A stretch of DNA of 64,000 nt from assembly GCA_951812955.1 (NCBI GenBank), contig OX638340.1, positions 2,176,001 to 2,240,000 of the forward strand, read 5' to 3'. Every line of letters begins with the position of its first letter. Position 1 is the stretch's first letter. This document shows positions 10,976 to 64,000 of this stretch, in pieces. The stretch comes from an uncultured Gemmatimonadota bacterium. Lineage in GTDB: Bacteria > JAAXHH01. Both the position numbers and the translations under genes were made by a program. Below the pieces are notes generated by a model, which was not told where the DNA came from, ran no database searches, and saw only the letters and a program-made list of their open reading frames with translations.

Positions 10976-12208
10976 CTACCGAAAGGTATTGACGCCACCC
11001 GTCACCAGTTTCTCGAGCACGATAGACGCGGTGCGACCGACCTGTTCCGTGGAAGCGCGGTCTCGGAAGACGCGGTGGCCGCCTTCGGCGATTTTACGCT
11101 GCAGTTCGCGGTCTCCATGCAGCCGGCGGATGGCGCCGGCGAGCGCTTCCGGATCTCCGCGCCTGCACAGCAGAGCGCTTTCCCCGTCGGCCAACAGCTC
11201 CCGGATGGCCGGGGAGTCCGCGGTGATGACCGCTTTACCCGCCGAAAGCGCCACAAACACTTTGCCCGGTATCACTCGGGCCGCTTTGCCGGACGTGCCG
11301 AATATCCCCAGACATACGCCCTTTCCCTGCAGGAACCGATGGACTCGCTCGTAGGGTATCCAATCGGTGAAGCGTACGTTTTCCAGGTTCAGTCTCCGAG
11401 CGGTCTCGTGGATTTCGTCCGTCAGTTGACCCGTCCCAACGAAATGGAAGACGATATCCGGCATGTCCTTCAGGCGATTCGCCGCTTCCATCATGAACGG
11501 CAAGCCGTGAAGCGGGATGAACTTGCCGACGAACAGGACCCGGAACGGCGTGTCCCCGGAGCGATCCGGTCCGCTCAAATCCTCCGGCGCAACCGGTCCG
11601 CTCAGACCCTTCGACACGTTCTGTCCGCACAGACCCTCCGGCGCAACCGGCTCCACTGCGCCGACGAAGACACGGGAAAACCGGTCGCGCGGCAGATTGA
11701 ATGTATCCACGAAATAGTCGATGTGGGCGTCCGTATCCAGAAGCACGAGGTCCGCCTTCGCGCAGGTCTGCCGGTCCAGCCAGCGCAGGAAACGGCTCGT
11801 CAGCGTGCCTTCCGCAATGGACCGGCGGTCGTCGACCAGGGTGTCGTAAAGAGAGACCAGCGGACTGAATACGAGGGGCCGCCGCGGAAACCGGGTGAGC
11901 AGCCATGCCAGCGGCATATCGAAATGGCCGATGTATCCGACCAGCATGACATCGTAGCGACCGACCGTGAAGAGGTACTTGAGCAACAGGCGGAGATAGG
12001 CCAGCTTCAGCTCGATGGCGCGCAAGACAAGCGAGAACGGGGCCAGGTACCTGCCGGTTTTGTCGCGTTCCTTCTCCCATAGGGGCACGTGGCACTCCAG
12101 CACCCGCCAGCCGGCTCGCGCAAGGCCATCGACGAGCGTTCGGTTACGCGGATAATCGCGTTCGTAAGTGCCAAAGAAGCAGATGCGACCATGTTGGGCG
12201 CGTGCCAT
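10976..12208 (-). CDS. Glycosyltransferase family 4 (GT-B, group 1)
   Basis: C-terminal E-x7-E-like region, GT1-type motifs, VFALSAGKAVITAD. Probable start MARAQHGRICFFG at 12208. Carries an internal short-repeat insertion (GPVAPEDLSGPDRSG). Confidence 0.7.
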   Translation of the reverse strand: MARAQHGRICFFGTYERDYPRNRTLVDGLARAGWRVLECHVPLWEKERDKTGRYLAPFSLVLRAIELKLAYLRLLLKYLFTVGRYDVMLVGYIGHFDMPLAWLLTRFPRRPLVFSPLVSLYDTLVDDRRSIAEGTLTSRFLRWLDRQTCAKADLVLLDTDAHIDYFVDTFNLPRDRFSRVFVGAVEPVAPEGLCGQNVSKGLSGPVAPEDLSGPDRSGDTPFRVLFVGKFIPLHGLPFMMEAANRLKDMPDIVFHFVGTGQLTDEIHETARRLNLENVRFTDWIPYERVHRFLQGKGVCLGIFGTSGKAARVIPGKVFVALSAGKAVITADSPAIRELLADGESALLCRRGDPEALAGAIRRLHGDRELQRKIAEGGHRVFRDRASTEQVGRTASIVLEKLVTGGVNTFR

Positions 12209-12212
12209 GGTA

Positions 12213-13181
12213 TCATCCCAGCCGTTCCCGGACGGCGTAGTCTTCCGTGCGCCGGGCCTGGTGGGCAATCATTTCCGCGATCAGCCCCATGGATACGAGC
12301 TGAATGCCGAGGACCATGAGGAGTACGGAGAACAGCAACAGGGGACGGGTTCCGATGCCGACTCCACTCAACCAGAGCCAGGACAGGTAGAGCGCGATGG
12401 CGAATCCGGCGCCGAAAGACAGCAGGCCGAATGAGCCGAAGAGATGCAGAGGGCGCCGGGTGTAATTGGAAACGAAATACACGGTCAGCAGGTCGAAGAA
12501 CCCGTGGGTGAACCGCCCCAGTCCGAACTTGGTGTGCCCGTGCTTCCTTGGGTGATGCAGTACCTGCGTTTCCGTCACGCGGAAACCGGCCCAGTGCGCC
12601 AGCACCGGCAGATAACGGTGGAGTTCCCCGTAGACGGGAATGGTTTCCACCACTTCACGGTTGTAGGCTTTCAGCCCGCAGTTGAAATCGTGCAGTCGCA
12701 GGCCGCTGACGATACCCGTTACCCAGTTGAACAGCTTCGAGGGGATTCGCTTGGACAGGGGATCCTTCCGGGTTTTCTTCCAGCCGGAGACCAGGTCGAA
12801 GCCCTCGCTCAGCAGGTCGACCATGCCGGGCGCTTCCGCGGGATCGTCCTGCAGGTCGGCGTCCATCGTCACGACGACATCGCCGTGGCTCGCTTCGAAG
12901 CCGACGGCCAGCGCCGCGGACTTTCCATAGTTGCGGCGGAACCGGATAGCCCGGATCCGATCATCATGCTCCCTGAGCCCGCGTATCGTCCCGAAGGACT
13001 CATCACGGCTGCCGTCGTCGATATAGATCACCTCGAAGGACTTTCCCGACGCCTCGAGGGCCGCGACAATACGTTCATGGAGTTCCGGCAGGCTCTCTGC
13101 CTCGTTGAACAGGGGAACGACGACGGATATGTCCACCTTTTCCTCCCTATCATCCGTTTTTTTCGGGTCGTCAAGCGGCAT
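12213..13181 (-). CDS. GT2 polyprenyl-phosphate glycosyltransferase (Dpm1/ArnC/GtrB-like) with a C-terminal membrane anchor
   Basis: VVVPLFNE, YIDDGSRD and DADLQDDP (DxD) motifs. Two C-terminal TM helices. Confidence 0.8.
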   Translation of the reverse strand: MPLDDPKKTDDREEKVDISVVVPLFNEAESLPELHERIVAALEASGKSFEVIYIDDGSRDESFGTIRGLREHDDRIRAIRFRRNYGKSAALAVGFEASHGDVVVTMDADLQDDPAEAPGMVDLLSEGFDLVSGWKKTRKDPLSKRIPSKLFNWVTGIVSGLRLHDFNCGLKAYNREVVETIPVYGELHRYLPVLAHWAGFRVTETQVLHHPRKHGHTKFGLGRFTHGFFDLLTVYFVSNYTRRPLHLFGSFGLLSFGAGFAIALYLSWLWLSGVGIGTRPLLLFSVLLMVLGIQLVSMGLIAEMIAHQARRTEDYAVRERLG

Positions 13182-14298
13182 CAGTACTTTCCCCTATTGA
13201 ACGCTGGATCACCCGCAGCGTCTGCCGAGCCGTGTTTTCCCAGGTGTAACGCCTGCTCCTCTCCAGGGCGTTCCCAGCGAGCCGTTCACGCTCTTCCTGG
13301 TCACGCAGCAGGCCGATCAACGCGCGTGCCATGGCCTTCCGGTCACCGAGGGGGACCAGCACGCCCGTTTCACCGTCGACCACGGCGTCGCGGAGTCCGG
13401 GCACCCGGGTAGCCACGACCGGTACACCGCAGGCATTGGCCTCGATCACGGTAATGCCCCATCCTTCCTTGCTCGAGGGATAGGCCGCTACTTCGGCGCG
13501 GGTCAGCATGCGCACTTTTTCTTCCTCGGAAACGTAACCCGTGAAATGCACCACATCACCCAGGCCCATGGATTGGGCCAACGATTCAAGCGCGCGCCGC
13601 CTGTCGCCCCCGCCCACGATCATCAGGCGCGCATCGGGGATCTTTTCGCGAACGATTGCCATGGCCTGGATCAGGTGGTCCACGTTCTTGTACTTCTTCA
13701 GACGGCCGAGGTAGATTACCAGCCCGGAATCCTTGCCGTCCGGCGCGGCCGGCGCATCGATGATCCCGGCGTCGAGCCCGTTGTGTACGACGCTGATCCG
13801 GTCCGCCGCGACCCCCATCCGGACGAGTTCGTCCCGGGTGCTTTCCGATACCACTTCAAAGAGACAATGCCGGTATACCCGCGGAATCAACCGTTCCATG
13901 AAGTACAGGCAGGTCGCGAGCACCGGGTTGATTTCCCGGTAGAACGTGGTCCCGAAAAGATGGTGCAGCAGGACCATCACCGGGGGGGCGTTCAGAAACC
14001 AGGGCAGCAGGGCGGGTATCTTGTTGATGTCTTCGATGACGACGTCGAAGGGCCGGTGGGAAAGGCGCCTGCGATAGTGCCACGGGACGGTCAGGTTGAA
14101 CGTCCATTTCCCGCCGAGACGGATGACTTCGATCCCGTCTACTTGCTCGGATTCTGTGGCGCCGGGGAACCTGCTACAGAGCAGGGTGACCTGGTGTCCC
14201 CATTCCGCGATCCGTGAGAAAGTCTCGTGCAGGTGCACTTCGGCGCCGCCCGCTTCCGGGTTGCGGATATCCCTCCAGTTAATGACCAGAATGCGCAT
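13171..14298 (-). CDS. Glycosyltransferase family 4 (GT-B)
   Basis: EGWGITVIEANACGVPVVAT GT1 motif. Probable start MRILVINW at 14298. Confidence 0.75.
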   Translation of the reverse strand: MRILVINWRDIRNPEAGGAEVHLHETFSRIAEWGHQVTLLCSRFPGATESEQVDGIEVIRLGGKWTFNLTVPWHYRRRLSHRPFDVVIEDINKIPALLPWFLNAPPVMVLLHHLFGTTFYREINPVLATCLYFMERLIPRVYRHCLFEVVSESTRDELVRMGVAADRISVVHNGLDAGIIDAPAAPDGKDSGLVIYLGRLKKYKNVDHLIQAMAIVREKIPDARLMIVGGGDRRRALESLAQSMGLGDVVHFTGYVSEEEKVRMLTRAEVAAYPSSKEGWGITVIEANACGVPVVATRVPGLRDAVVDGETGVLVPLGDRKAMARALIGLLRDQEERERLAGNALERSRRYTWENTARQTLRVIQRSIGESTDAA

Positions 14299-23280: not shown

Positions 23281-26200
23281 CTATCTGTTCCAGTCGGACA
23301 AATCGGGTACGCCCCAGCTGACGACGACCTCCAGTCCCGGTTCCGGTAACGCCCGCCGCGCGGTCTGTAGGCCCGTCGACGGCGCCGTCCAGTTCCGCAG
23401 CAAACCCCGCACCCGCCCGTCTACCGGATCCAGGAGGAGCGCCGCAGAGCGGTCATCCCCATCGTACTCGCTTTCTTCGCCGCCCAGCGTCGCGACGCCT
23501 TCGGGACCGGAAAGCACGATGCGTGAAAGCCGGCTGGACCAGTCTAGCCGGACCGGAATGACGAAGGCAAAGGAACCACCCTCGCCGTCGGCGATCTCGG
23601 CCATGCCGAAGCGCAGGCTGAACAGCGCGCCCCCTCCTTCGTCTTCGCCGACGATCCGGTACGGACCATCCAGTCGGGGCATGGATGCAGGCGCGTCAAT
23701 GGCGAAAGCCGGTTCAAGCACTATATCACCGTCGCTGTTCACACCGCCCCAGAGCAGCAGGCTGCGCGTGGACGGCGCGAAGGCCGCTGCCATCCGGGTT
23801 TCCCGTGTCTGCGACAAGCGGTAGCCCATGGCCTTGTTGAAATTGTAATCACTGATCCAAGCGGGATCGCAGTAGCCCATCAGATCCGGTGTACTCGGGT
23901 CCACTAATCTCCCCTCGAGAAGGTCATATCCCCATGCGCCTATCGAACCATCCGGATAGGGATATTCGGGATCGGGTCCACCGGCATCACCGCACGGGGC
24001 ATGAAATAAGTTCAGATTGTGGCCTAGTTCGTGGGCGATGGTAAATCCACTGAGGCCTGAGATAGTCACGTTTCCCGGCAGCTCACCCCGACCTCCGCCG
24101 TTTCTCAGCATACCCATGTAGTGTCCGGCCCCACCTTCCATGGTTGCAATTACCCCGGTAAGCCGGAAAACTTCAGATCGGTTTTCCCACACCGGATCCA
24201 CCGATATCGAGACAGGTTCATGAACATTCAGCACGAAGTCGCCCACGGGAAGGATATCGCGCGTCAATCGGAACAGGTCGGATTCAGCATTAAGTCCATC
24301 GATCTGCGCCAGGTACGATTCGTCGGGATGCTCCGTCCAGAGGAACGGAATCAGAGTGAGTTCAAAAGGCGGTAGATTCACCACGTCCACGGGCATTCGG
24401 CCCTCACGGGGAAGGCGGCCGGAGATGCCCAGAGCCGGATCCAGGCCGCCGTCCGGATCGATCTCGACGACCATCTCCAGCCCTGGCGCCAGAACGCGAC
24501 CGGGAATCCGTGCGTTGGCTGTAGCCGATAGATCTCCCTCTTCGATCTGCCGGGGAATAGTAGTGCCGCTGCCTGGTATGTCTACAGCATACACTTCGGC
24601 GCCGCGCTCGTAAAAGGTGGCCCGCACGGGAGGCAAGGCGGCATCCGGATCCGATTCCGACGTAATGAAAACGCGGAGTAGCGCATCTTCTCCCGCCATC
24701 AGGGGAACCGGATACGCGAGCGACTGCGTCGCCTGGGTAACGTAGGCCGCTGATCCTCCACCCCCTACGCCGCAGTCGGCAACCCGATTGTTCGGAATAC
24801 CCCGCAGCCAGTCCTGGAAACCGGGATCAGAAGGCGCACATAGTTGCGTTCCGCCAAGCAGGAGTTCTTCCAGGTCCAGGTTGGTCAACGTCGGAGGCAG
24901 TACGCCGGACATGTCTGCATTATCCGTAAGACCCAGCGACTTGAGTCCGACAAGACCACCGAAGGTTCGCGGGATATTGCCTCTAATCCTGTTGTACGAA
25001 AGACGCAGCTGTTCAAGGTTGCCGAGTTGGCCCAATTCCGGAGGGATCAGACCCGTCAACTGGTTGTTGGCAAGCCACAGTCTCTCGAGGTTGCCGAGTT
25101 GGCTTATTTCCAAGGGGATCGGCCCCGACAACTGATTGTTGGAAAGCTGCAGAATCACGAGGTTGCCGAGTTGGCCTATTTCCGAGGGGACCGGACCCGT
25201 CAACTGATTGTTGGTTAGATGCAGAATCTCGAGGTTGCCGAGTTGGCCTATTTCCAAGGGGATCGGACCCGACAATTGATTTTTGGAAAGCTGCAGTGTC
25301 TTGAGGTTGCCAAGTTGGCCTATTTCCGTGGGGATCGGACCCGACAACTGATTGAAGTCAAGCCCCAGCCATTCGAGGTTGCCGAGTTGGCCTATTTCCG
25401 TAGGGATCGGACCGCTTATTGAGGTGCCTTGAATTCCCAGCTTTTCGAGGGCGCCGAGTTGGACCAATTCCGGAGGGATCGACCCCGTCAACCGGGTGAA
25501 GTTAAGGTTCAGGTTTTCAAGGTTATGTAGTTGTCCGAGTTCCGGAGGAATCGACCCTGTCAACTGATTCCCGCCAAGAGACAATTCTGTGAGGTTTTGT
25601 AGTTGTCCAAGTTCCGGAGGAATCGACCCTGTCAACTGATTCCCGCCAAGAAACAATGTTGCGAGGTTATGAAGCTGTCCAAGTTTCGGGGGAATCGAAC
25701 CTGTTAACCGATTCTCGCCAAGGTATAATACTGTGAGATTGTAGAGCTGTCCAAGTTCCGGGGGAATCGAACCTGTTAACTGATTCCCACCAAGAGACAA
25801 TCTATTGAGTTTAATTAGTTGTCCGATATCAGGCGGTAACACTCCCAGAAGATTGTTCGCAGCTAAGCTCAGCCCTGTTGCCTCTCCACTTGAGTTGGTT
25901 GCCACGCCATGCCATTCGTCTAGTCGCGAATCGCTCAGCCAATTTGTACTGTTGGTCCAGTTTGGACCATTCGTACTGTTATATAGGGCAGCTAAGGGAT
26001 AGTAGTCCCGCCGCATTTCGGTGCAGTTCATTACTTTTTGTTGAGGTATGCCATCCAGCCATTCCTGAAACTGGGTATCCACCGGTGCGCACAGTTGTGT
26101 TCCCTCAAGTTCCAATTCAAGTAATCCGATACTCGTGAATGAATGTGGTACTGGTCCGATAAGCCCGGAATTGGATGAGAGATTCAGCACTTCAAGATTT

Positions 26201-28443
26201 GCCAGATCGCTCAACTGGCTTGGAAGCGATCCAGTCATATTGTTGTTGGCAAGCTCCAGCGCTCTCACCCTACCGCCGGCCCCCACAGACACGCCGTACC
26301 ACTCGTACAGCGGCGCATCGCTCAGCCAGTTTTCATCGTTCGACCATGATGCCCCGTCTGTTGCCCTGTAAAGCGCGATCAGGGTGCCCGAATCGCAGAA
26401 GACGGCGCCTCTCTTCGTTGAGATTCCGCTGAGCCACTTCTGGAATGCCGGGGTGCTGGGTATACACAGATCCGTAGATTCCATCTCAAGTGACTCAGGT
26501 TTTGTCTGAATAAGCGCCGGCGGCAACGGTCCGGTGAGTTCACGGTTATGGCTGAGACTCAGAATCCGCAGGCTTTTAAGGTTGCCCAATGCTGGCGGAA
26601 TTTGACCCGATAACCGATTCCGGCTGAGATGCAACCGTCGAAGGTTAGCCAGATTGCCCAGCTCAGGCGGAATCGAGCCGGACAGCTCGTTGTTATCAAG
26701 ATACAGACCTTGCAGGTTTTCAAGGCTCCCCAATGCTGGCGGGATCGGACCGGACAACTCGTTGCTCCCAAGATTCAGCTCTTGCAGGTTTTTCAGGTTG
26801 CCCAATACTGGCGGAATCGAGCCGGACAGCTCGTTGCCCCCAAGTTCCAGATATTGCAGGTTTTCAAGATTGCCCAGTTCAGGAGGAATCGGTCCCGACA
26901 ATTCGTTGCCCGCAAGATACAGATACTGCAGATTTTCAAAGCTGCCCAGTTCGGGCGGGATCGGACCGGACAATTCATTGTTCCAAAGACTCAGGTATTG
27001 TAGGTTTTCAAAGCTGCCCAGTTCGGGCGGGATCGGACCGGATATACGATTTCGGTAAAGATCCAGCTTATGTAGGCTGTCCAGGTTGCTCAACTCGACC
27101 GGGATTGAGCCGGACAACCCGTTCTCTTTGAGAACCAGGCTTGTGACGCGGCCCACGACGTTTGTCGTGACTCCGTACCACGCTTCGAGCGGCCCGTCGC
27201 TCAGCCAGTTGTCGTTGTTGCCCCAATTGGGGCCGTCGGTGGCGTTGTAAAACGCGGTCAGCCCCGCTCGATCAGTGCGGTCATCTGTGACCATTATCTC
27301 CACATTGGCAGACGCGCTGCCGGCACGCGCCGTGACCGTTGCGCTGCCGTTGCCGACCGCCGTCACCAGACCCTGAGAACTCACCGTCGCCACCGACGCG
27401 TCGCTGCTCTGCCAGTCCACGACCGCACCAGCTACCGGCTGGCCGTTCTGATCGAGCACCGATGCCGTCAACTGCACAGTCTCCCCCAGGGACATCAGCG
27501 TCGCCGCCGCCGGCTCGATTACCACGCTGCCCGCAGACTGCATGACCGTCACCGGGACGCTCCCGGACGCGCTGCCGGCACGCGCCGTGACCGTTGCGCT
27601 GCCGTTGCCGACCGCCGTCACCAGACCCTGGGAACTCACCGTCGCCACCGACGCGTCGCTGCTCTGCCAGTCCACGACCGCACCAGCTACCGGCTGGCCG
27701 TTCTGATCGAGCACCGATGCCGTCAACTGCACAGTCTCCCCCAGGGACATCAGCGTCGCCGCCGCCGGCTCGATTACCACGCTGCCCGCAGACTGCATGA
27801 CCGTCACCGGGACGCTCCCGGACGCGCTGCCGGCACGCGCCGTGACCGTTGCGCTGCCGTTGCCGACCGCCGTCACCAGACCCTGGGAACTCACCGTCGC
27901 CACCGACGCGTCGCTGCTCTGCCAGTCCACAACCGCACCAGCTACCGGCTGGCCGTTCTGATCGAGCACCGATGCCGTCAACTGCACAGTCTCCCCCAGG
28001 GACATCAGCGTCGCCGCCGCCGGCTCGATTACCACGCTGCCCGCAGACTGCATGACCGTCACCGGGACGCTCCCGGACGCGCTGCCGGCACGCGCCGTGA
28101 CCGTTGCGCTGCCGTTGCCGACCGCCGTCACCAGACCCTGGGAACTCACCGTCGCCACCGACGCGTCGCTGCTCTGCCAGTCCACAACCGCACCAGCTAC
28201 CGGCTGGCCGTTCTGATCGAGCACCGATGCCGTCAACTGAGCCGTCGATCCTAAGGAGTTGAGCGTAACCGACGAAGGGGTGATCGTAACTCGGGTGGGT
28301 ATGGGCGTTACGGAGACTGGAGGAGGCTGTTCAGGCGGTTTCGGCTTTGTCGGGCTGTCCTTGCCACAGGTAACCATCGCAAGAAGGGTCAGACATGCTA
28401 CTGGGATCAGAATAAGACGTGAGACGGCTGGAGGCGGAGTCAT
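23281..28443 (-). CDS. Giant secreted lipoprotein: signal/lipobox, 4x Big_2 Ig-like repeats, 3 blocks of plant-specific-type LRRs each with an LRRNT_2-like cap, C-terminal metzincin-like zinc metalloprotease domain
   Basis: 1720 aa. N-terminus MTPPP...LLAMVTCGKD has a lipobox-like Cys. The 85-aa Big_2-like unit is repeated from near-identical 255-bp DNA units. Many 24-residue LxxLxxLxLxxNxLSGxIPxELGxLxN repeats follow N-caps of the form ALYxATDGxxWxNxxNWLSDxPLxEWxGV. The zinc site reads TIAHELGHNLNLFHAP, i.e. HExxHxxNxxH. Confidence 0.8.
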   Translation of the reverse strand: MTPPPAVSRLILIPVACLTLLAMVTCGKDSPTKPKPPEQPPPVSVTPIPTRVTITPSSVTLNSLGSTAQLTASVLDQNGQPVAGAVVDWQSSDASVATVSSQGLVTAVGNGSATVTARAGSASGSVPVTVMQSAGSVVIEPAAATLMSLGETVQLTASVLDQNGQPVAGAVVDWQSSDASVATVSSQGLVTAVGNGSATVTARAGSASGSVPVTVMQSAGSVVIEPAAATLMSLGETVQLTASVLDQNGQPVAGAVVDWQSSDASVATVSSQGLVTAVGNGSATVTARAGSASGSVPVTVMQSAGSVVIEPAAATLMSLGETVQLTASVLDQNGQPVAGAVVDWQSSDASVATVSSQGLVTAVGNGSATVTARAGSASANVEIMVTDDRTDRAGLTAFYNATDGPNWGNNDNWLSDGPLEAWYGVTTNVVGRVTSLVLKENGLSGSIPVELSNLDSLHKLDLYRNRISGPIPPELGSFENLQYLSLWNNELSGPIPPELGSFENLQYLYLAGNELSGPIPPELGNLENLQYLELGGNELSGSIPPVLGNLKNLQELNLGSNELSGPIPPALGSLENLQGLYLDNNELSGSIPPELGNLANLRRLHLSRNRLSGQIPPALGNLKSLRILSLSHNRELTGPLPPALIQTKPESLEMESTDLCIPSTPAFQKWLSGISTKRGAVFCDSGTLIALYRATDGASWSNDENWLSDAPLYEWYGVSVGAGGRVRALELANNNMTGSLPSQLSDLANLEVLNLSSNSGLIGPVPHSFTSIGLLELELEGTQLCAPVDTQFQEWLDGIPQQKVMNCTEMRRDYYPLAALYNSTNGPNWTNSTNWLSDSRLDEWHGVATNSSGEATGLSLAANNLLGVLPPDIGQLIKLNRLSLGGNQLTGSIPPELGQLYNLTVLYLGENRLTGSIPPKLGQLHNLATLFLGGNQLTGSIPPELGQLQNLTELSLGGNQLTGSIPPELGQLHNLENLNLNFTRLTGSIPPELVQLGALEKLGIQGTSISGPIPTEIGQLGNLEWLGLDFNQLSGPIPTEIGQLGNLKTLQLSKNQLSGPIPLEIGQLGNLEILHLTNNQLTGPVPSEIGQLGNLVILQLSNNQLSGPIPLEISQLGNLERLWLANNQLTGLIPPELGQLGNLEQLRLSYNRIRGNIPRTFGGLVGLKSLGLTDNADMSGVLPPTLTNLDLEELLLGGTQLCAPSDPGFQDWLRGIPNNRVADCGVGGGGSAAYVTQATQSLAYPVPLMAGEDALLRVFITSESDPDAALPPVRATFYERGAEVYAVDIPGSGTTIPRQIEEGDLSATANARIPGRVLAPGLEMVVEIDPDGGLDPALGISGRLPREGRMPVDVVNLPPFELTLIPFLWTEHPDESYLAQIDGLNAESDLFRLTRDILPVGDFVLNVHEPVSISVDPVWENRSEVFRLTGVIATMEGGAGHYMGMLRNGGGRGELPGNVTISGLSGFTIAHELGHNLNLFHAPCGDAGGPDPEYPYPDGSIGAWGYDLLEGRLVDPSTPDLMGYCDPAWISDYNFNKAMGYRLSQTRETRMAAAFAPSTRSLLLWGGVNSDGDIVLEPAFAIDAPASMPRLDGPYRIVGEDEGGGALFSLRFGMAEIADGEGGSFAFVIPVRLDWSSRLSRIVLSGPEGVATLGGEESEYDGDDRSAALLLDPVDGRVRGLLRNWTAPSTGLQTARRALPEPGLEVVVSWGVPDLSDWNR
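27311..28238. repeat. Near-identical 255-bp tandem repeat array (about 3.6 copies) encoding Big_2-like Ig domains
   Basis: Copies begin at 27311, 27566, 27821 and 28076. The plus-strand antisense ORFs 27339-27545, 27594-27800 and 27849-28055 are identical. Confidence 0.9.
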
Positions 28444-28861
28444 GATCCGAAACGGCTGGGACTTGGAGCGTTGTCCCTTGGGAAGGACCAGAAGGATTCT
28501 CAGGTTAAGGAACCTCTAGTCAAGTTCCTGGCATATACTGCGTAAATAACGGAACCCTTCATTAATTCTGCACGGCTAAGAGGAAGCATATCGAATGCCT
28601 GTCAGGCAAGAAGCATAATCCGTCTAGAAGTAGCGGTCACACTATTTAAGTCCGACCCGACCACGACCGCACAAAAACATCGACAATATACTACACAAAA
28701 TAAAAGGTTAATAACCTAAGGAACCTCTGATCAAGCCCCTGACGTTGTTTTCGTGGATAAAGTAGATCATGCTAATATAATACAGGATAAAGAGTGATTT
28801 GTGCGTGAATAAAACGCCATATAAGAAGAATATTACGCGAATATCAGTCTTGGAATATCTT

Positions 28862-30093
28862 AAAGGAACCTTCGATCAAGTTCTTGGCGTTGTTTTCGTG
28901 GATAAGGTAATATGAACTCGGTATCCGTCGTACGTTGTGCAGCGCCTTCTCAACTTTAAGATCAAACGGGGTACGCGTTCATGAAACAATCGAGTTTTTT
29001 CGATATGGCCTACGATCAGAAGAAGAAAACGCGCAAGGAACGCTTTCTGGGTGAGATGGATGCGGTGCTTCCCTGGGACCTGTTGCTCGCGCCCATCCTG
29101 GCGCACTATCCGAAGGCGGGAGGCGGCAGGCGCCCCATAGGGGCTCCGGTGATGCTCAGGATCTACTTCATGCAGCAGTGGTACGGCCTTGGCGATCCGG
29201 CCATGGAAGACAGTCTCTACGACGTGGAATCGATGCGCCGCTTCGCAGGCGTGGATCTTGGCGGCGTGCCCGACGAGACGACGATCTGCAAGTTCCGCCA
29301 CCTCTTGGAAGCCCATGGACTGACCGAAGCGTTGTTCGAGCAGACAAAGCGCTATCTGTCGGATCGGGGCATGATGGTGAGCGAAGGCACGATCGTGGAT
29401 TCAGGCGATCATCCATGAGCCGTCGTCGACGAAGAACAAGGAGGGTAAGGGGGACCCCGAGATGGCCTTACGCGAAGAAGGGCAACACCTGGCACTTCGG
29501 CATGAAGGCCCACGTGGGCAGCGATCCGAAGGGACGGGTGCACAGCGTGGTGGCCACGCCCGCCTCGGTCCACGACGCCAAGGCGATGGAGGCCTGCCTG
29601 CATGGACAAGAAAAAGCGATCTACGGCGACAAGGCCTATGCGGACCAGGTGAGAAAGCAAAGGGCAGAAGAGGAAGGGATCGTATGGCGGGTGCATCGCA
29701 AGGCCAACAGGGGCAGGCGCCTCAACTGTGCGGACCGGTCGTTCAACCGAAAGAGCAATCGCGTACGAGCAAGGGTCGAACATCCCGTTGGCATCATCAA
29801 AAACCTGTGGGGCTATCGAAAGGTCAGGTACCGGGGTCTTGCCAAGAACACGGCCCATCTCTTCACCCTGTTCGCCCTGGCCAACTTCCAGTCCGAAGGG
29901 AACTGGCGCTCACATGGGAAGCAGTCCGTCCAGACCTGGCGAAACCGAGCACAATGGCCGATACGGGACCCATCTGAGGCCAAAAACACCCTCGCAAGTA
30001 CCCCAAACGACACCATTTTCAACATGATCGTCCTCTAAACTGACTCATATCATACCTCTTGGCCGGACAACCGGGTTGATCAGAGGTTCCTTA
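28862..30093 (+). mobile_element. IS5-family insertion sequence (about 1.23 kb) with terminal inverted repeats AAGGAACCTCTGATCAA / TTGATCAGAGGTTCCTT
   Basis: Left IR at about 28863 (aaggaaccttcgatcaag). Right IR at 30077-30093 is its exact complement with one mismatch. The transposase ORFs lie between them. Confidence 0.7.
28981..30038 (+). pseudogene. IS5-family DDE transposase, disrupted by two frameshifts (split over three frames)
   Basis: The N-terminal part (frame 1 to about 29395) ends EGTIVD. The IS5 hallmark IIHEPSSTKNKEGKGDPEM is in frame 2. KKGNTWHFGMKAHVGSD and the rest of the DDE domain are in frame 3 to 30038. Both shifts are +1, so they do not compensate. Confidence 0.7.
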
Positions 30094-30676
30094 AATGACT
30101 ACATTTCGACATGCTACTGTCTCAAAGTCATGATATGACATCCTGCAACTCACAATACATGTATCATGGTAGTAATGCGAATGCCATTTCTACGATATGT
30201 TCGTCTCATACATCACCAACTTCACCTCCCCCCACCCCAAACCGGCTTGTACCTTGGGGATGGAATTAGGACCTGGTGAAAGCTGTTCGATCGGCAGTGC
30301 AACGTTTGAAGTCAGGGATGACGGGTTCGGTTGTGTCGTAGGCATATGTGTGCAGGTACCGGTCTTACATTGAACAACTTCAGAGCTAGCAAAATAGCCG
30401 GCACCTCCTGTTGGAGAATTGACGGACTACCCTAGCGTTTGAGTCGGATTTGCAATATTAGCCCGGATGCCTATGGTGGTTTTGTGCAGCCAGTGAGTTA
30501 CGAGAATAGATGTACTTCCAGTAAACGTGGAAATGGACTCACTTTAGTCGCATCGGGTCAAAGGAAAGCTACTGATCCGGACTTACGCAGACCGGGTCAC
30601 TTTTTAGCGGCTACCCATAGAACTTAAGAATACAAAAAGACCGACGCCCGGTTGGGTTACAACTGCGTCGCTTCTA

Positions 30677-57707: not shown

Positions 57708-57746
57708 ATTCCAATCGAAGTGCTTTATTGTAGAAAGGAGCAAAGC

Positions 57747-58457: not shown

Positions 58458-58615
58458 ATGGACGGTGGCAAACACCTATTCAAGACTAAATTGAGTCTGG
58501 ATACTAGATTGCCGACTCGTTTTTCGACTGTATTATAATAGCAGCGGCCATCGACCAGATCGGCTTTCTCAATACATGTTGTCAGTAAGGACTTCGGTTC
58601 TAACTGGACCATCAT

Positions 58616-58855
58616 ATGGATAATCTGGCTTTGATAGTAGACTCGGTATCTACCATATGCCTCGTAGTCTTGGCAATCGTCACCCTGTCATGGAAGTTCT
58701 CACAAAGAAATCAGGGCGAGTTGCAGGAGGTACGTGATTCCATTAATGAAATCAAAAACGTACTGTTTGACATCAATGGCAGACTGGGACGAGTTGAAGG
58801 GCAGTTGGCTTCTGGCTTAGGTAGCAGCGAGGAGAAAATTAACAGTGACAAGTAG
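58616..58855 (+). CDS. Small hypothetical membrane-anchored protein (79 aa) in AT-rich islet A
   Basis: N-terminal TM helix plus a coiled-coil-like tail. Local GC is far below the window average. Confidence 0.4.
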   Translation: MDNLALIVDSVSTICLVVLAIVTLSWKFSQRNQGELQEVRDSINEIKNVLFDINGRLGRVEGQLASGLGSSEEKINSDK

Positions 58856-59120
58856 ATTGTCTTTAGAAGCTAAAACGCTGGTTCTGAAGGCCTTGCAAAC
58901 CGAAGATGGGCTGATTTTGACCGGGCAGACTTTCGGAGGTTGGTTCATTCAGACCGGTAACTGGAATACCGGGTTTGTGAAAGGACACGATGCGGCCAGA
59001 TGGAAAGACGCACTGGAAACGTTGTATTTAAACCAGTTTATCAAACTTACCGGCGTCCACCTGTATGAACTCACATCCAATGGCCGGCAGTTGAGCAATT
59101 CTCTCAGTGCCGAAGATTAG
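58845..59120 (+). CDS. Small hypothetical protein (91 aa), GTG start overlapping the previous ORF
   Basis: An 11-nt overlap suggests translational coupling. No known domain. Confidence 0.35.
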   Translation: MTSRLSLEAKTLVLKALQTEDGLILTGQTFGGWFIQTGNWNTGFVKGHDAARWKDALETLYLNQFIKLTGVHLYELTSNGRQLSNSLSAED

Positions 59121-59236
59121 CATCTACCCTCAATAGGGCCCCGGGCAGAAGTCCGGGGCTTTTCCATTCTGGGTGGTGATTCAGGGCTATATCCAATTTA
59201 ACTAATACAATCCGATTGATCTAGCTTGTCGGGTTT

Positions 59237-60376
59237 CTAAGCCGCCATTTCCTTGCCCTGAGCTTCCCTTATGCACTCCGCGAGAATGGGTATGCCATCG
59301 CGGATATCCTCAATCGTGGGGAAACCGTACGCGATGCGCAGGTAGGGAATATCCTCTCCCAGGGCGCTGAATCCCTGCCCCGGCGTGTAGTAGACGTCGC
59401 GGCTTGCCGCCAGTTGGTGGGCCTTGCGCGTGTCCGTCGCCGATGGGATCCGTACCCACACGAACATGCCGCCGGGCGGATCCGTCCACCAGACCTCATC
59501 GCCCAACGCGCCGAAGTGGGCCTCCAGCGATTCGACGACCGCGTCCTTGCGCGCTTTCATGACGCGGTTCACTTCTGCGATGTGGTCCCATAGATGCTCG
59601 CCGAAGTATTCCGCTACGATCATGCTCGCCAGGGCGTTCGTCCCTCCGTCCATCTTGTTGGCCATGATCCGCTGCTGCAACGCCTCCGGGGCCATGAAAT
59701 AACCCTGCCTCACGCCTGGTCCGAGTATCTTGGAGAAAGAACCGACGTAAACGACCCGTTCGTCTTCGTCCAGATGATACAGGTTCGGCGGCACCGGATC
59801 GGACTGGAACACGATGTCCCCGTAGCAGTGGTCGTCCACGACCGGCGTATCAAACTCGCGAGCCAATTCGAGCAGGCGTTCCCGCCGTTCCAGCGGCATG
59901 ATAGAGCCCGTTGGATTGTGATGGGTGGGGATGGTGTAGATGAACTTCGGCGGCGTTCCCGCGTCGACAAGACCCTGCAATACGGTCTCCAGTTCGTCCG
60001 TGACCAGTCCCTGTTCGTCGAGCGGCGCAGGCACGATGCGCACCTGCCTGCTGCGAAACACACTCAACGAGCCGCCGTAAGAAAAGGATTCCGTGACGAT
60101 CGTGTCTCCGGGTGACGCGAAGGCGTCCGTGATCAACTGCAGCGCCTGCATCGAACCAGAGGTTAAAACGATCTCTTCCAGGGGCACCGCTCGTCCAGTG
60201 CCGCGCGCGAATCGCTGCGAAGCGATGGCTCTCAACGGTTCGTATCCCCGGCCGTCCGGGTAGTTTACCAGTTCCGAGCCGCGTGCGGCAATGACCTTTG
60301 CCGCGGCCTCGGCCAGCGCATCTGACGGGAAGGACAGGGGGTCGGGCCGTCCGGCGCCTAGATTGATCTCACGCAT
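59237..60376 (-). CDS. PLP-dependent aminotransferase, class I/II fold (2-aminoadipate/aromatic aminotransferase-like)
   Basis: 379 aa. PLP-lysine context YVGSFSKILGPGVRQGY. GC-rich like the backbone. Confidence 0.7.
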   Translation of the reverse strand: MREINLGAGRPDPLSFPSDALAEAAAKVIAARGSELVNYPDGRGYEPLRAIASQRFARGTGRAVPLEEIVLTSGSMQALQLITDAFASPGDTIVTESFSYGGSLSVFRSRQVRIVPAPLDEQGLVTDELETVLQGLVDAGTPPKFIYTIPTHHNPTGSIMPLERRERLLELAREFDTPVVDDHCYGDIVFQSDPVPPNLYHLDEDERVVYVGSFSKILGPGVRQGYFMAPEALQQRIMANKMDGGTNALASMIVAEYFGEHLWDHIAEVNRVMKARKDAVVESLEAHFGALGDEVWWTDPPGGMFVWVRIPSATDTRKAHQLAASRDVYYTPGQGFSALGEDIPYLRIAYGFPTIEDIRDGIPILAECIREAQGKEMAA

Positions 60377-60507
60377 CGATTTGCTCCTGCAGAACTTGGA
60401 TGTATTAGTATCGGTTTTTTGCTGCTAAATACAATCAGGATATCTCACCAACTAGATGGTGTTACAGTCTCAGTGTTTAATGGTAATGGAGAACTGCACT
60501 GTCTTTG

Positions 60508-61152
60508 TCACCTACGTGATCGCGATGGTACTGAACAATGATCATCCAATATTTTAACAAGAGACATACAAACACTTCTCATCTGACTAATCGCACTACT
60601 TATCTCTGATCGAGTATATCTGCGTCCGATATTCTCCGGTGGTTCTCGACCATGGGCAATAGCATTTCTGTGTGCGACCACTTCGTCTATTCGATTTCTA
60701 TGTTTTCGTCGGCGTACAGGCATCCGCCGAATACCAAAAACCCCAAAAATAAATCGCAGATGCGAGTATCTATAATGTGTTCCGTCGGTAGGTGGTTTGA
60801 TATTACTGGACAGATCAGGCTTTTGATCTGAAAATGCACGTTCAAATACTTTAACTCGATTTAACCATTCCTTACTTCGCGACCCGTCCCGCAATGATTT
60901 CAATTCTGGATCCAAGTAAATAGCCATTAGTGTAGGCAACAGATCTTTCATCATGTGTTTGTGGTTTTTAATCGCTTCTACTGCCCCAATCACTGCGTTA
61001 TTCACAGTGTATTCGTAGACAGCGTAAGTCTGCACAAACAAAAGCCCCTTGGCAACGACTGCTTGGTGTTCTTCCAGCTTCCTTGTCGCCTTCCAAAATT
61101 GCTCAATTGATAAAAACCGAGTTTCAATTTCTGTCTTAAGTGCTGGGAACAT
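60508..61152 (-). CDS. HEPN-like protein (R-x4-H motif: HRNAIAHG) - putative RNase partner of the DUF262 protein
   Basis: 214 aa. C-terminal EVVAHRNAIAHGREPP matches the HEPN Rx4-6H (RNxxxHG) signature. 17-nt overlap with the upstream DUF262 gene. AT-rich. Confidence 0.55.
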   Translation of the reverse strand: MFPALKTEIETRFLSIEQFWKATRKLEEHQAVVAKGLLFVQTYAVYEYTVNNAVIGAVEAIKNHKHMMKDLLPTLMAIYLDPELKSLRDGSRSKEWLNRVKVFERAFSDQKPDLSSNIKPPTDGTHYRYSHLRFIFGVFGIRRMPVRRRKHRNRIDEVVAHRNAIAHGREPPENIGRRYTRSEISSAISQMRSVCMSLVKILDDHCSVPSRSRR

Positions 61153-62215
61153 ACACTCTTCCTAAGAATCGATCTCGGCAGAACTCTATACGACCCTTCA
61201 CAGCTCTCAAACTATTTGTCGCGCCTGTGGTGAATCCTCTGAGTTCGTCCGAGTTCATCCAAGTAGAAATGTCTGTTGTGTCCAGTTTAGCATGTTCTTT
61301 TAATGCTAGTGATGCTCCTACGGCTATTGCCTCATAGAGATTCAATGGCGTTAAGCCCTTCCGACCAGGACGCCTTATACCTTCTGGGAAAGTTTGGGCT
61401 AGTTTTTGAAAAACCGTTCGAAACTCTTTTTCTTTGGTAATGTAGTCAAAGTGATTGCTCGCATCCTTCATGTAATCCGTTAAAAACTCCTCAACACTGT
61501 GTTCAAAGTTATTGTATCGATCCAAATACGCAAAATAACGAAGCACACATTCTTCTAAAGTTCCATCATTCCTGTTTCCTTTTGAAAGTTTTACGACCTT
61601 TTGGAAGTCATCAGTTTTTGCCAACTCATCTAGTTTGTCAGCAAACTTTCCTTGGTACACGCAGTCCCGTATTTCTTGGTTCGTTAGCAAAACACCGCCG
61701 GTGTTCAAGCGCTCAAAAAGATCAAACCGTATTACTTTGTCACTCTTATCGTTCAGGGTAACAACTCTTAAAGGTCTAGTCTTCACATGTTGTTGAATTG
61801 TTGTAGGAAAGGTACCATATGTCAAATTGTTGAAATTACTTAGTTTCTTCAGCCCTTTTAATACTAGCTTCTCACCCAAGCCAAATTGATTACGCAGTTC
61901 TTCATCGCCAGCAAACTTGACTATTGCACTCAAACGTTGAACTCCATCAACAGCTTCCCACGTGAAATCGTCATTTGTTGCCATAAAAAGATTGGGAATC
62001 GGTATTCCAAGCATGAGCGATTCTACGAGTCGAGAACAGCGTTCATCATTCCAGCGAAATTGCCGTTGGTATGAAGGTGCAACTGATATCTGTCCTTCCT
62101 TTAGCATGCTCAATAGTTCTTGGAGTTGGATGTCGAAAGTATCGAAATCCACTGTTCGTCGTTGAGTTGCCAGTTGATCAGTAAGGTCTTGCGGTATTTC
62201 GATAGGAATTTGCAC
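61136..62215 (-). CDS. DUF262 (ParB/Sulfiredoxin-like, GmrS-like) domain protein
   Basis: 359 aa. N-terminal motifs QRQFRW and AVDGVQRLSAI (the DGQQR motif of DUF262). No DUF1524/His-Me nuclease domain follows. AT-rich island. Confidence 0.7.
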   Translation of the reverse strand: MQIPIEIPQDLTDQLATQRRTVDFDTFDIQLQELLSMLKEGQISVAPSYQRQFRWNDERCSRLVESLMLGIPIPNLFMATNDDFTWEAVDGVQRLSAIVKFAGDEELRNQFGLGEKLVLKGLKKLSNFNNLTYGTFPTTIQQHVKTRPLRVVTLNDKSDKVIRFDLFERLNTGGVLLTNQEIRDCVYQGKFADKLDELAKTDDFQKVVKLSKGNRNDGTLEECVLRYFAYLDRYNNFEHSVEEFLTDYMKDASNHFDYITKEKEFRTVFQKLAQTFPEGIRRPGRKGLTPLNLYEAIAVGASLALKEHAKLDTTDISTWMNSDELRGFTTGATNSLRAVKGRIEFCRDRFLGRVYVPST

Positions 62216-62706
62216 TTCACCCTCCTACGATCCGGCTTTCAATCAAGTTCCGATTAGCGAGACAATCTTGTTACGAACCAAGATGATAAAGGCTGCCAGT
62301 GCTAGTTAAACTCTAACATGTTCTTGGTAGGTAAAATATGCGCTAATAAGCCTCTCTGATTTGCCAATCTCATAAACTCATATACTTAAGCCGTAGAATT
62401 GCTAATGTGAATTATGTGTGAAACTGTGCAAGATTGAGGTACTCGATTACCGTGTAAGTTTTGGACGACACGGTGCCAGTTGGTTCATTCTCCTACAGTT
62501 ACTACAAATGCCGTGTAACTCGACCAGACAGCCAATGTAGAGCGGCCTTCCCATGCCTGTCAACCGCTTATGCACGGACGCGGGGCGTCTTCAACCGTAT
62601 ACGAGGCGCATTCAGCCGGATAAGTGGGCGCCGTTGACAGGATGCATGACCCTTTCTACATTGGTCCTACCGGTACCAGCAACTGAATCTCTCCATCATA
62701 TCGCCC

Positions 62707-64000
62707 ATGATCTCACACCGATTCATCCCCCTGCTCGCCACAATTGTTACGTGCGCGTCGTTCCAGACCGTTGCGCCCGTCACCCATGCGCAGGACCAGC
62801 CACCGGGTCAGCTGCAATCCAAGCGCCCGATTCGCGTCGAAGTCCCGCTCTTCGAGGGCGGCCAGGGGCTGGAGTTCTTCCTCGAGTGCGCCCGGACCTA
62901 TGAACAGGAGCATGAGGGCGTAGTGATCGACCTCTACGGCGATCCCCGCATACACGACAAGGTGCGGGTGCGCATCCTTGAACGCTCCTTCCCCGAGGTC
63001 ACAAACGCCCGCCTGAACTACTGGGCGCTCATCCGCAACGGCGACCTGCTGCCCTTGGACGAGTTTCTCGACCAGCCCAACTGGGAAGGGGACCGTACCT
63101 GGCGCGAATCGTTCCTGCCCGGTACGCTGACCCAGTACACGCATGAGGGTAAGACCTATGGCGTTCCCCTGATGGCGTCGGCCTACGCGGTGTGGTACAA
63201 CAAGAGCCTCTTCGAAGAACACGGCTGGCAACCGGCGACCACCTGGGAAGAGTTCTTTGCGCTTTGCGAAGAGATCAAGGCCGCCGGCATGTGGCCGCTC
63301 GCCTTCCAGGGCCGTTACCCGGGCTACGTGCAGGCCGTGATCGACCACGCATACTACCACCTGGCAGGACCGGAAAGGTACTTCGACCAGAAGAACCTGG
63401 TACGCGGCAGTTTTGACAATCCCGAATTCGTCGAGTCCCTGTCCCTTGCGCAGCAAATCGCACTCAACTTTTTCCAGCCGGGCGCCATGGGCATGAGCCA
63501 CACCGAATCGCAGCTCGAGTTCTTCCTGGGCCACACGGCCATGATCTTCTGCGGTTCGTGGCTCAAGAGCGAGATGCTGGGCAAGATACCGGACGGTTTC
63601 CGCCTGGGCTCCTTCAACCTGCCGGTAGCGCCTACCGGCAAGGCGGATCCATCGGCCGTTTACGGCGGGTCCGGGTACTATTTCGTCATGAAGGACAGCG
63701 ACAACCCGCTGGCCGGGGTCGAGTTCCTGCGCTTCATGACCTCCCGGCGCATGGCCGGCCGCTTCGCCCGGATGCGCGACATCCCCGTGTCCGTGGCCGG
63801 CGTATCCGAAGAGAACCTGTCGGAAGACATGGCCGACCTGGCGGCCATGCTGAAAGACGCGGCCGTCACTTACGGTACGCCGCCCGGGGAAGGCTATCCG
63901 GCTATGACGCAGTACTGGACCGACGCGCGCTTCCGCGTCATAACCGGACAAACCACGCCAGCCGAAGCCGCGGCGGAACTGGAAACCGCGGCGGCCGTGG
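62707..64000 (+). CDS. ABC transporter extracellular solute-binding protein, family 1 (sugar-type), 3'-truncated by the window end
   Basis: Not in the ORF track because it has no stop in the window. Frame from the ATG at 62707 gives signal peptide MISHRFIPLLATIVTCASFQTVAPVTHA, then a continuous SBP_bac_1-like sequence to position 64000. Confidence 0.7.
   Translation, partial: MISHRFIPLLATIVTCASFQTVAPVTHAQDQPPGQLQSKRPIRVEVPLFEGGQGLEFFLECARTYEQEHEGVVIDLYGDPRIHDKVRVRILERSFPEVTNARLNYWALIRNGDLLPLDEFLDQPNWEGDRTWRESFLPGTLTQYTHEGKTYGVPLMASAYAVWYNKSLFEEHGWQPATTWEEFFALCEEIKAAGMWPLAFQGRYPGYVQAVIDHAYYHLAGPERYFDQKNLVRGSFDNPEFVESLSLAQQIALNFFQPGAMGMSHTESQLEFFLGHTAMIFCGSWLKSEMLGKIPDGFRLGSFNLPVAPTGKADPSAVYGGSGYYFVMKDSDNPLAGVEFLRFMTSRRMAGRFARMRDIPVSVAGVSEENLSEDMADLAAMLKDAAVTYGTPPGEGYPAMTQYWTDARFRVITGQTTPAEAAAELETAAAV

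Follow-up and report, generated by a model that had tools for sequence, protein, structure and literature searches.

The far end of the DNA studied here, a window of 64,000 nucleotides (nt) from an uncultured Gemmatimonadota bacterium (assembly GCA_951812955.1, contig OX638340.1, positions 2,176,001 to 2,240,000), raises the question of what a short AT-rich islet carrying two overlapping genes is, how it came to lie at this site, and what its products may do. A sequence-only reading of the window had proposed a horizontally acquired and hitherto undescribed defence module, in which a gene of the DUF262 family is followed by a gene for a HEPN-like ribonuclease (RNase). According to the reading that we favor, with a probability of about 0.72, the islet is a horizontally acquired two-gene unit of the DUF262-HEPN family, related to the anti-phage system PD-T4-2, in which the DUF262 protein controls the HEPN RNase. 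The parts of this unit, given in window positions and with protein lengths in amino acids (aa), are as follows.

60393 to 62533: AT-rich cassette of 2141 bp with a guanine-plus-cytosine (GC) content of 0.418, present in the window and missing from the closest relative, L103
61136 to 62215, minus strand: DUF262 gene, 359 aa; ParB/Srx-like nucleoside triphosphate (NTP)-binding domain at about residues 30-190 and an all-helical C-terminal domain; no nuclease domain
60508 to 61152, minus strand: HEPN gene, 214 aa, MAE_28990/RiboL-PSP type; predicted RNase effector
61136 to 61152, minus strand: overlap between the end of the DUF262 gene and the beginning of the HEPN gene, 17 nt, ATGTTCCCAGCACTTAA, indicative of translational coupling
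60652 to 60669, minus strand: codons of the HEPN motif R162-N-A-I-A-H167, as read from the sequence
62216 to 62533, minus strand: leader of the cassette, 318 nt, AT-rich, kept only in the relative L048 (82%)
60393 to 60507, minus strand: 3' spacer of the cassette, 115 nt, AT-rich, GC 0.37

The ends of the cassette were set by comparison with the empty site in L103, and they are nearly identical to the limits of the islet as previously drawn (60380-62550). Its GC content lies far below that of equal-sized windows elsewhere (mean 0.616, standard deviation 0.025; z = -8), with local values down to 0.38-0.47 across 60.3-62.5 kb, and the GC content at third codon positions (GC3) is 0.36-0.37 for the gene pair versus 0.76-0.83 for the neighbouring genes. 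The compositional anomaly was thus confirmed by both measures, and the backbone was found at about 61% GC rather than the 65% first estimated. The arrangement of two minus-strand genes with a 17-nt overlap likewise agrees with the coordinates of the open reading frames (ORFs).

The upstream gene opens with a GTG start codon six bases past AGGAGG, and its product displays the two DUF262 hallmarks formerly noticed, QRQFRW (residues 50-55; 62068-62051) and DGVQR (residues 90-94; 61948-61934). The only Pfam match of the 359-aa protein is GmrSD_N/DUF262 (PF03235, E=2e-24, residues 33-185), and the absence of the DUF1524 nuclease, also part of the sequence-only reading, was corroborated, as PF07510 gave no Pfam match in it at E<=1. 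Among 39 homologs with 59-78% identity, the residues Y49, Q50, R51, F53, W55, D90, G91, Q93 and R94 of the NTP site are invariant. The AlphaFold model (predicted local distance difference test score, pLDDT, 83) consists of an alpha/beta N-terminal domain and is purely helical from about residue 160; therefore, residues 160-359 hold no cryptic His-Me nuclease or beta-beta-alpha-metal finger, and no metal-nuclease fold was found in the protein. Its best structural matches belong to the BrxU/SspE/GmrSD group. Among the PADLOC models, the best match is NsnA of the Menshen system (7e-63, model positions 41-375 of 385), PD-T4-2_A is matched with E=1.5e-47 and 160 bits (model positions 42-327 of 363), and the matches to SspE and to the GmrSD-like HEC-05/06 are limited to the N-terminal motif region; in PHROGs, phrog_2598 spans the whole protein (4e-95). 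We conclude that the DUF262 protein is composed of an NTP-binding domain of the ParB/Srx fold, in which the motifs Y-Q-R-x-F-x-W and D-G-x-Q-R are intact, and a BrxU/SspE-like helical domain.

The downstream gene has an ATG start codon, and its product bears the octapeptide HRNAIAHG at residues 161-168 (R162-H167, 60669-60652), in which a canonical Rx4H(G) motif had been recognized. This assignment to the HEPN superfamily holds at every level examined: the protein exceeds the gathering scores of both PF18737 HEPN_MAE_28990 (39.7 bits; gathering score 26.8) and PF18735 HEPN_RiboL-PSP (37.5 bits; gathering score 28.4), its AlphaFold model (pLDDT 94.9) displays the HEPN helical-bundle fold with HEPN-MNT toxins as structural neighbours, and R162, H167, G168 and E157 are invariant among 48 HEPN homologs reaching down to 23% identity, N163 being conserved in at least 90% of them. 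The retention of the invariant R-x4-H argues for an active RNase. The family is large (about 1380 clusters at 50% identity, E<=1e-3), and a tblastn search of plasmids with the HEPN protein gave no match, the divergence within the family being too great for a search with one sequence. PADLOC models gave the window HEPN and ten relatives only noise-level matches to RTasHEPN. Regarding both proteins, the NCBIfam search gave no match to either, and searching the sequences of the PDB with the two profiles returned only short DUF262-motif matches or sub-threshold Csm6/CRISPR-associated matches.

The two genes are also associated across genomes. A survey from the HEPN side, carried out by pattern scan with one genome per species, recovered 42 loci from Alpha- and Gammaproteobacteria, Acidobacteriota, Planctomycetota, Verrucomicrobiota, Bacteroidota, Entotheonella and others; 39 of these loci have a DUF262 homolog as the immediate upstream neighbour, in the same orientation. 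The three exceptions are a stop-split, N-terminally truncated HEPN gene (L016), a C-terminal HEPN fragment (L042) and a spurious 30-residue match (L044); two more loci hold visibly decayed pairs. This outcome bears out the adjacency expected by the sequence-only reading. The junction between the two genes ranges from about -23 to +3 nt in homologous loci. On IMG/VR viral contigs coding for a DUF262 protein with at least 45% identity and with room downstream, a HEPN gene follows directly in 27/27 cases, and the partner becomes variable below about 36% identity. Purifying selection acts on both window genes (dN/dS, the ratio of nonsynonymous to synonymous divergence, 0.07-0.16), the DUF262 protein being the slower-evolving one, as it stays at about 44% identity or above where HEPN falls to 24-30%. 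Furthermore, the GC content of the pair is below that of its flanks in almost every homologous locus. DUF262 and HEPN are, across phyla, an obligate and translationally coupled pair.

Conjugative plasmids (IncX1/IncF) also carry homologous pairs, close to replication genes and pemIK, and in Vibrio such pairs adjoin integrases. As a further observation, a Candidatus Entotheonella metagenome-assembled genome (MAG) from the same metagenome series as L001 (contigs L050-L052) carries a 58%-identical HEPN copy with its DUF262 partner. That pair follows directly on a BREX-like cluster (PglX-like methylase, PglZ), transposases and a toxin-antitoxin pair of TacA and an acetyltransferase, and precedes a DUF1156 fragment; the transposase content varies among these otherwise identical contigs.

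The architecture itself is known, and in this respect the qualifier undescribed has to be withdrawn. The RiboL-PSP HEPN family was listed as occurring in an operon with ParB, and ParB-HEPN operons were predicted, by Anantharaman et al. (2013; PMC3710099). The window pair agrees with those operons in its HEPN families and its ParB-like partner, and differs from them in having no accompanying DNA methylase gene. Experimental validation came with PD-T4-2 from E. coli ECOR65, tabulated as DUF262, HEPN (Vassallo et al., 2022; PMC9519451, Tables S1 and S3): its deletion restored T4 plaquing on ECOR65, and the system protects against T4 in native and heterologous hosts (PMC9519451). In the HHpred table of that study, PD-T4-2A corresponds to PF03235 and the top matches of PD-T4-2B are PF18735 and then PF18737 (PMC9519451). 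Reviews name PD-T4-2, Menshen and Dazbog as DUF262 systems devoid of DUF1524 (PMC10952713; PMC12065111). The window pair resembles PD-T4-2 in consisting of two adjacent genes, DUF262 without DUF1524 and then a small stand-alone HEPN, and its HEPN protein and PD-T4-2B share the same two top families, PF18735 and PF18737. However, the window HEPN is longer, with 214 aa and its motif at 162-167 compared to about 165 aa and a motif near residues 110-130 in PD-T4-2B, its score for MAE_28990 is slightly above that for RiboL-PSP, and its host is an uncultured high-GC bacterium.

The same architecture was then searched for in E. coli plasmids, chromosomes and phages, which revealed four other subtypes in E. 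coli/Salmonella, none of them with a bona fide PD-T4-2_B.

L045 and L047: plasmid pairs, 180-aa HEPN of the RiboL-PSP type
L046: plasmid pair, 211-aa HEPN of the MAE_28990 type with the motif RNKIAHG, hhalign probability 95.7% to the window family
L049: prophage pair, 182-aa HEPN
P24B2, a P2-like coliphage: pair in the P2 variable locus beside the replication nickase gene, 239-aa HEPN of the MAE_28990 type, hhalign 81%

Among these subtypes, the best match to PD-T4-2_B is a weak one, given by the E. coli prophage HEPN (E=2e-4, 19 bits). The plasmid-borne partners are named MAE_28990/MAE_18760 family HEPN-like nuclease in RefSeq. The MAE_28990-type pairs of the E. coli plasmid and of P24B2 are the closest in kind to that of the window: their DUF262 proteins are 32-34% identical to it over nearly the full length (34% for P24B2), and their partners have 211-239 aa and the motif RN-x-(I/L)-AHG; nonetheless, identity is low, and unlike these pairs, which reside on mobile elements, the one in the window forms a bare cassette within the leader of a chromosomal gene. 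Judged by its sequences, the window pair belongs to the DUF262-HEPN family in the broad sense, as a MAE_28990 subtype, and falls outside the strict PD-T4-2 profile; it is a divergent new member of a known, experimentally validated architecture. Tentatively, the MAE_28990-type pairs may even be a functionally distinct sister system to PD-T4-2, with another trigger (e.g., unmodified phage DNA or a nucleotide signal) or another RNA target; if so, this family would currently be missed in censuses of defence systems.

Other known systems share single parts with the window pair. GmrSD, BrxU and SspE have the same N-terminal DUF262 ParB/Srx NTPase domain with DGxQR, followed by a helical domain, but end in a DUF1524 His-Me nuclease that the window protein does not have, its effector being a separate HEPN protein. 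NsnA of Menshen (Millman 2022; Li et al. 2025, PMC12065111) combines ParB-DUF262 with a C-terminal helical ParBDB-like domain as in the window, whereas the two-gene window unit has neither the NsnB ABC ATPase nor the NsnC inPIN-nuclease of that three-gene system. HEPN-MNT toxins, Csm6 and AbiF/AbiD have in common with the window the HEPN helical bundle and R-x4-H; in contrast, the window has no MNT antitoxin, CARF domain or RNA antitoxin, and the predicted regulator is the DUF262 protein.

With respect to the origin of the cassette, the gene pair and a small neighbouring ORF led to relatives of the window genome. The flanks of L103 are 93-97% DNA-identical to those of the window and include the aminotransferase and ABC-transporter genes, and its empty site has 63 bp (L103 11940-12002) instead of window positions 60393-62533. 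The pair is also missing from L104 and L105. Alleles were then compared among relatives that do carry it. The flanks of L048 and L001, a species-level pair, are 95-97% identical, and their gene pairs are just 74% DNA-identical; the L001 pair shares 78% (DUF262) and 63% (HEPN) protein identity with that of the window. Between the window and L048, the pair is 91-97% identical (dS, synonymous divergence, about 0.2) and the flanks 81-89% (dS 0.5-0.75), with the switch in identity at about 60400-60430. Since different alleles occupy the same site in close relatives, horizontal exchange is demonstrated, and there is direct evidence of gain or loss and of allele exchange at a fixed locus. The exchange probably took place by recombination in the conserved flanks. 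No integrase, terminal or direct repeats or target-site duplication were found at the cassette ends, and a scan of the whole window yielded no tRNA, so tRNA-linked integration does not apply. As a side observation, the more distant syntenic relatives L107-L109 have at the cassette position (about 11457-12845) a gene for a 462-aa decarboxylase dependent on pyridoxal phosphate (PLP), with a native-like GC content of 0.65, and the slot between aminotransferase and ABC transporter is therefore variable in content.

The sequence-only reading had also taken imperfect hairpins at the islet border as support for horizontal acquisition; the acquisition stands on the empty site and on allele mosaicism, and the hairpins do not contribute to it. 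The inverted repeats (62532-62664; fold z = -2.2) lie outside the cassette, in the backbone, and are kept at the L103 empty site with 96.5% identity. They consist of two divergent copies of GTTGACAGG-N13/14-TCTACATTGG, a pattern that occurs 2 times in the 64-kb window versus 0 expected by chance, each copy scoring 10/12 as a sigma-70-type promoter in a consensus scan; the motif pair is conserved in L048 and L001. The hairpin was considered as an att site or terminator and ruled out, being backbone DNA that matches two promoter-like motifs. The spacing between the two copies is about 30-45 nt longer in the window and L103 than in L048 and L001. The host features that surround the cassette are listed below.

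62534 to 62563, minus strand: promoter-like element of the backbone, TTGACA-N18-TACATT, whose -10 box directly precedes the first base of the cassette
62634 to 62662, plus strand: second divergent copy, TTGACA-N17-TACATT, facing the gene of the ABC-transporter solute-binding protein
59237 to 60376, minus strand: host PLP aminotransferase gene (PF00155, 1e-35), 94% DNA identity to L103, GC3 0.76

At the empty site, the minus-strand element lies about 80 nt upstream of the start codon of the aminotransferase gene, which in the window is now 3' of the cassette. As the cassette starts right after the -10 box of this element, it is placed in the leader of the aminotransferase gene, and the element is likely to serve as promoter for the aminotransferase gene where the cassette is absent and for the cassette in the window, as judged from its consensus boxes. 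The consensus scan found no other promoter-like or terminator-like sites on the cassette strand: there was no promoter-like site within the 318-nt leader and no terminator-like site on the minus strand of the 115-nt 3' spacer. The minus strand of the leader has no ORF of at least 50 aa, and an Rfam scan of 58-63 kb gave no match, so the leader contains no known RNA. The gene 5' of the cassette is divergent and codes on the plus strand for the solute-binding protein of an ABC transporter; it starts at about 62700 and runs past the window end, it has a signal peptide and 89% identity to L001, and in relatives an ABC permease is fused to it or follows it. A 412-aa minus-strand ORF at 62713-63951 was discarded as an antisense artefact of high GC, the true gene being that of the solute-binding protein.

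How the two products may work together can be outlined from their better-known relatives. In GmrSD, BrxU and SspE, DUF262 is the NTPase/sensor, whose NTP binding or hydrolysis gates the nuclease, and cleavage is carried out by DUF1524 (PMC10952713). By analogy with these enzymes and with HEPN toxins, the DUF262 protein would bind the HEPN protein and keep it inactive; phage DNA or a nucleotide cue sensed by DUF262 would lead to an NTP-dependent change that releases or activates the HEPN dimer, which would then cut RNA and halt phage growth, which would probably be costly for the cell. The captured host promoter would drive the cassette, with read-through into the aminotransferase gene. Elsewhere, the pair occurs in contexts of a defence type, namely the variable locus of P24B2, the neighbourhood of BREX, TacAT and transposases in Entotheonella, integrases in Vibrio, and conjugative plasmids.

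Several points weigh against this reading. The window pair stands alone between metabolic genes, outside any defence island. PD-T4-2 (E. coli, anti-T4) is the only experimentally validated member of the DUF262-HEPN family, and the window clade is assigned to this family by likeness, as drawn from profiles and published tables. The PADLOC model PD-T4-2_B matched neither the window HEPN nor any of ten relatives at E<=1, and the DUF262 protein scores higher on Menshen NsnA than on PD-T4-2_A. It is by analogy that the two proteins are proposed to contact each other, the HEPN protein to be an RNase, and phage DNA or a nucleotide cue to be the trigger, and the view that the cassette is most likely transcribed from the captured promoter, with read-through into the aminotransferase gene, derives from the consensus scan.

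The preference for NsnA might suggest a degenerate Menshen system (NsnABC) that lost NsnB and NsnC, given that this is the best and a nearly full-length PADLOC match. Nevertheless, the HEPN-paired DUF262 proteins of E. coli, Flavobacterium and phage P24B2 score NsnA above PD-T4-2_A as well; as every HEPN-paired DUF262 does so, the NsnA model is simply broader. Moreover, no ABC-ATPase or inPIN-nuclease gene is adjacent, the next genes being those of HEPN and the host aminotransferase, while the association with HEPN is conserved and purifying selection acts on the genes. The window pair is not Menshen because NsnB and NsnC are absent, and decay from such a system is very improbable. Even less credible is a conventional GmrSD with a cryptic DUF1524 nuclease: the shared N-terminal domain speaks for it and nothing else does, as PF07510 is unmatched, the C-terminal part is predicted to be all-helical, and the protein has 359 aa compared to 560-600 aa for BrxU and SspE. 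For want of DUF1524, the pair is not a GmrSD.

The other two alternatives concern the roles of the proteins. The pair could be mainly an addiction module in the style of toxin-antitoxin systems, with the HEPN RNase as toxin and DUF262 as neutralizer, which would stabilize its carrier DNA, phage defence being secondary or absent. The overlapping two-gene layout, the location of homologous pairs on IncX1/IncF conjugative plasmids by replication genes and pemIK, and the resemblance of the HEPN model to HEPN-MNT toxins are in line with this; however, the one tested representative protects against T4 in native and heterologous hosts (PMC9519451), a 359-aa two-domain NTP-binding protein would be atypical as an antitoxin, and the pair is found in phage defence hotspots and beside BREX. 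We regard this alternative as unlikely, and it and the defence reading are not mutually exclusive. Less probable still is an effector role of the DUF262 protein, which would be a ParB-like DNase or nickase or else attack modified DNA as a type IV-like enzyme, with HEPN as an RNA- or nucleotide-binding accessory or sensor. Anantharaman et al. (2013) did place the ParB-like fold among the endoDNase domains of restriction-modification systems and called the MAE_28990 partner a ParB nuclease (PMC3710099), and the DUF262 protein is far more conserved than HEPN (about 44% identity or above versus 24-30%). Against such a division of roles, DUF262 is the NTPase/sensor and DUF1524 the cleaving domain in GmrSD, BrxU and SspE (PMC10952713), HEPN retains its invariant catalytic R-x4-H, and the DUF262 protein shows no metal-nuclease fold. 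The control of a HEPN RNase by a DUF262 protein continues to be the reading that we prefer.

Other variable sites were observed in the vicinity. A second AT-rich islet (58460-59130, GC about 0.46) holds two plus-strand ORFs overlapping by 11 nt, one at 58616-58855 (79 aa, with an N-terminal hydrophobic helix followed by a coiled-coil-like part) and one at 58845-59120 (91 aa), neither of which has a match in Pfam, NCBIfam, PADLOC or PHROGs. Their dN/dS of 0.14-0.27 in comparison with relatives makes it probable that both are real genes, and their identity is 66-69%, as opposed to 88-90% in the flanks. The family of the 91-aa protein is tiny (10 clusters), one member coming from a Gemmatimonadetes MAG. 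L103 lacks most of the 79-aa ORF (58547-58821) and has in its stead 400 extra bp with a 68-aa ORF. Similarly, L001 carries between P-loop kinase-like and creatininase genes an insert of about 2.3 kb (11850-14177) with four genes (135, 103, 159 and 289 aa; no Pfam matches), whose window counterpart is a 15-bp junction (57710-57726), another nearby indel hotspot. More GC dips (0.41-0.49) occur at 25400-25900, 28300-28800 and 29900-30200, in or just upstream of a 1720-aa minus-strand ORF (23281-28443) and at the end of a 286-aa ORF (29178-30038).

Taken together, our results indicate that the cassette is a genuine module of the defence type that is exchanged horizontally, and it adds no new class of defence. 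It belongs to a large, phylum-spanning DUF262-HEPN clade that goes undetected by a standard defence-finder model, the PD-T4-2_B profile being too narrow, and censuses relying on this profile may undercount it. The locus is also a clean natural example of cassette movement, as its empty site is exact, one locus holds two divergent alleles in near-identical backgrounds, and the insertion lies right behind a host promoter-like element. Finally, R162/H167 in HEPN and D90/Q93/R94 in DUF262 are defined as mutational targets for the proposed control of a HEPN RNase by a DUF262 NTPase, a control that is mechanistically unsolved even for PD-T4-2.

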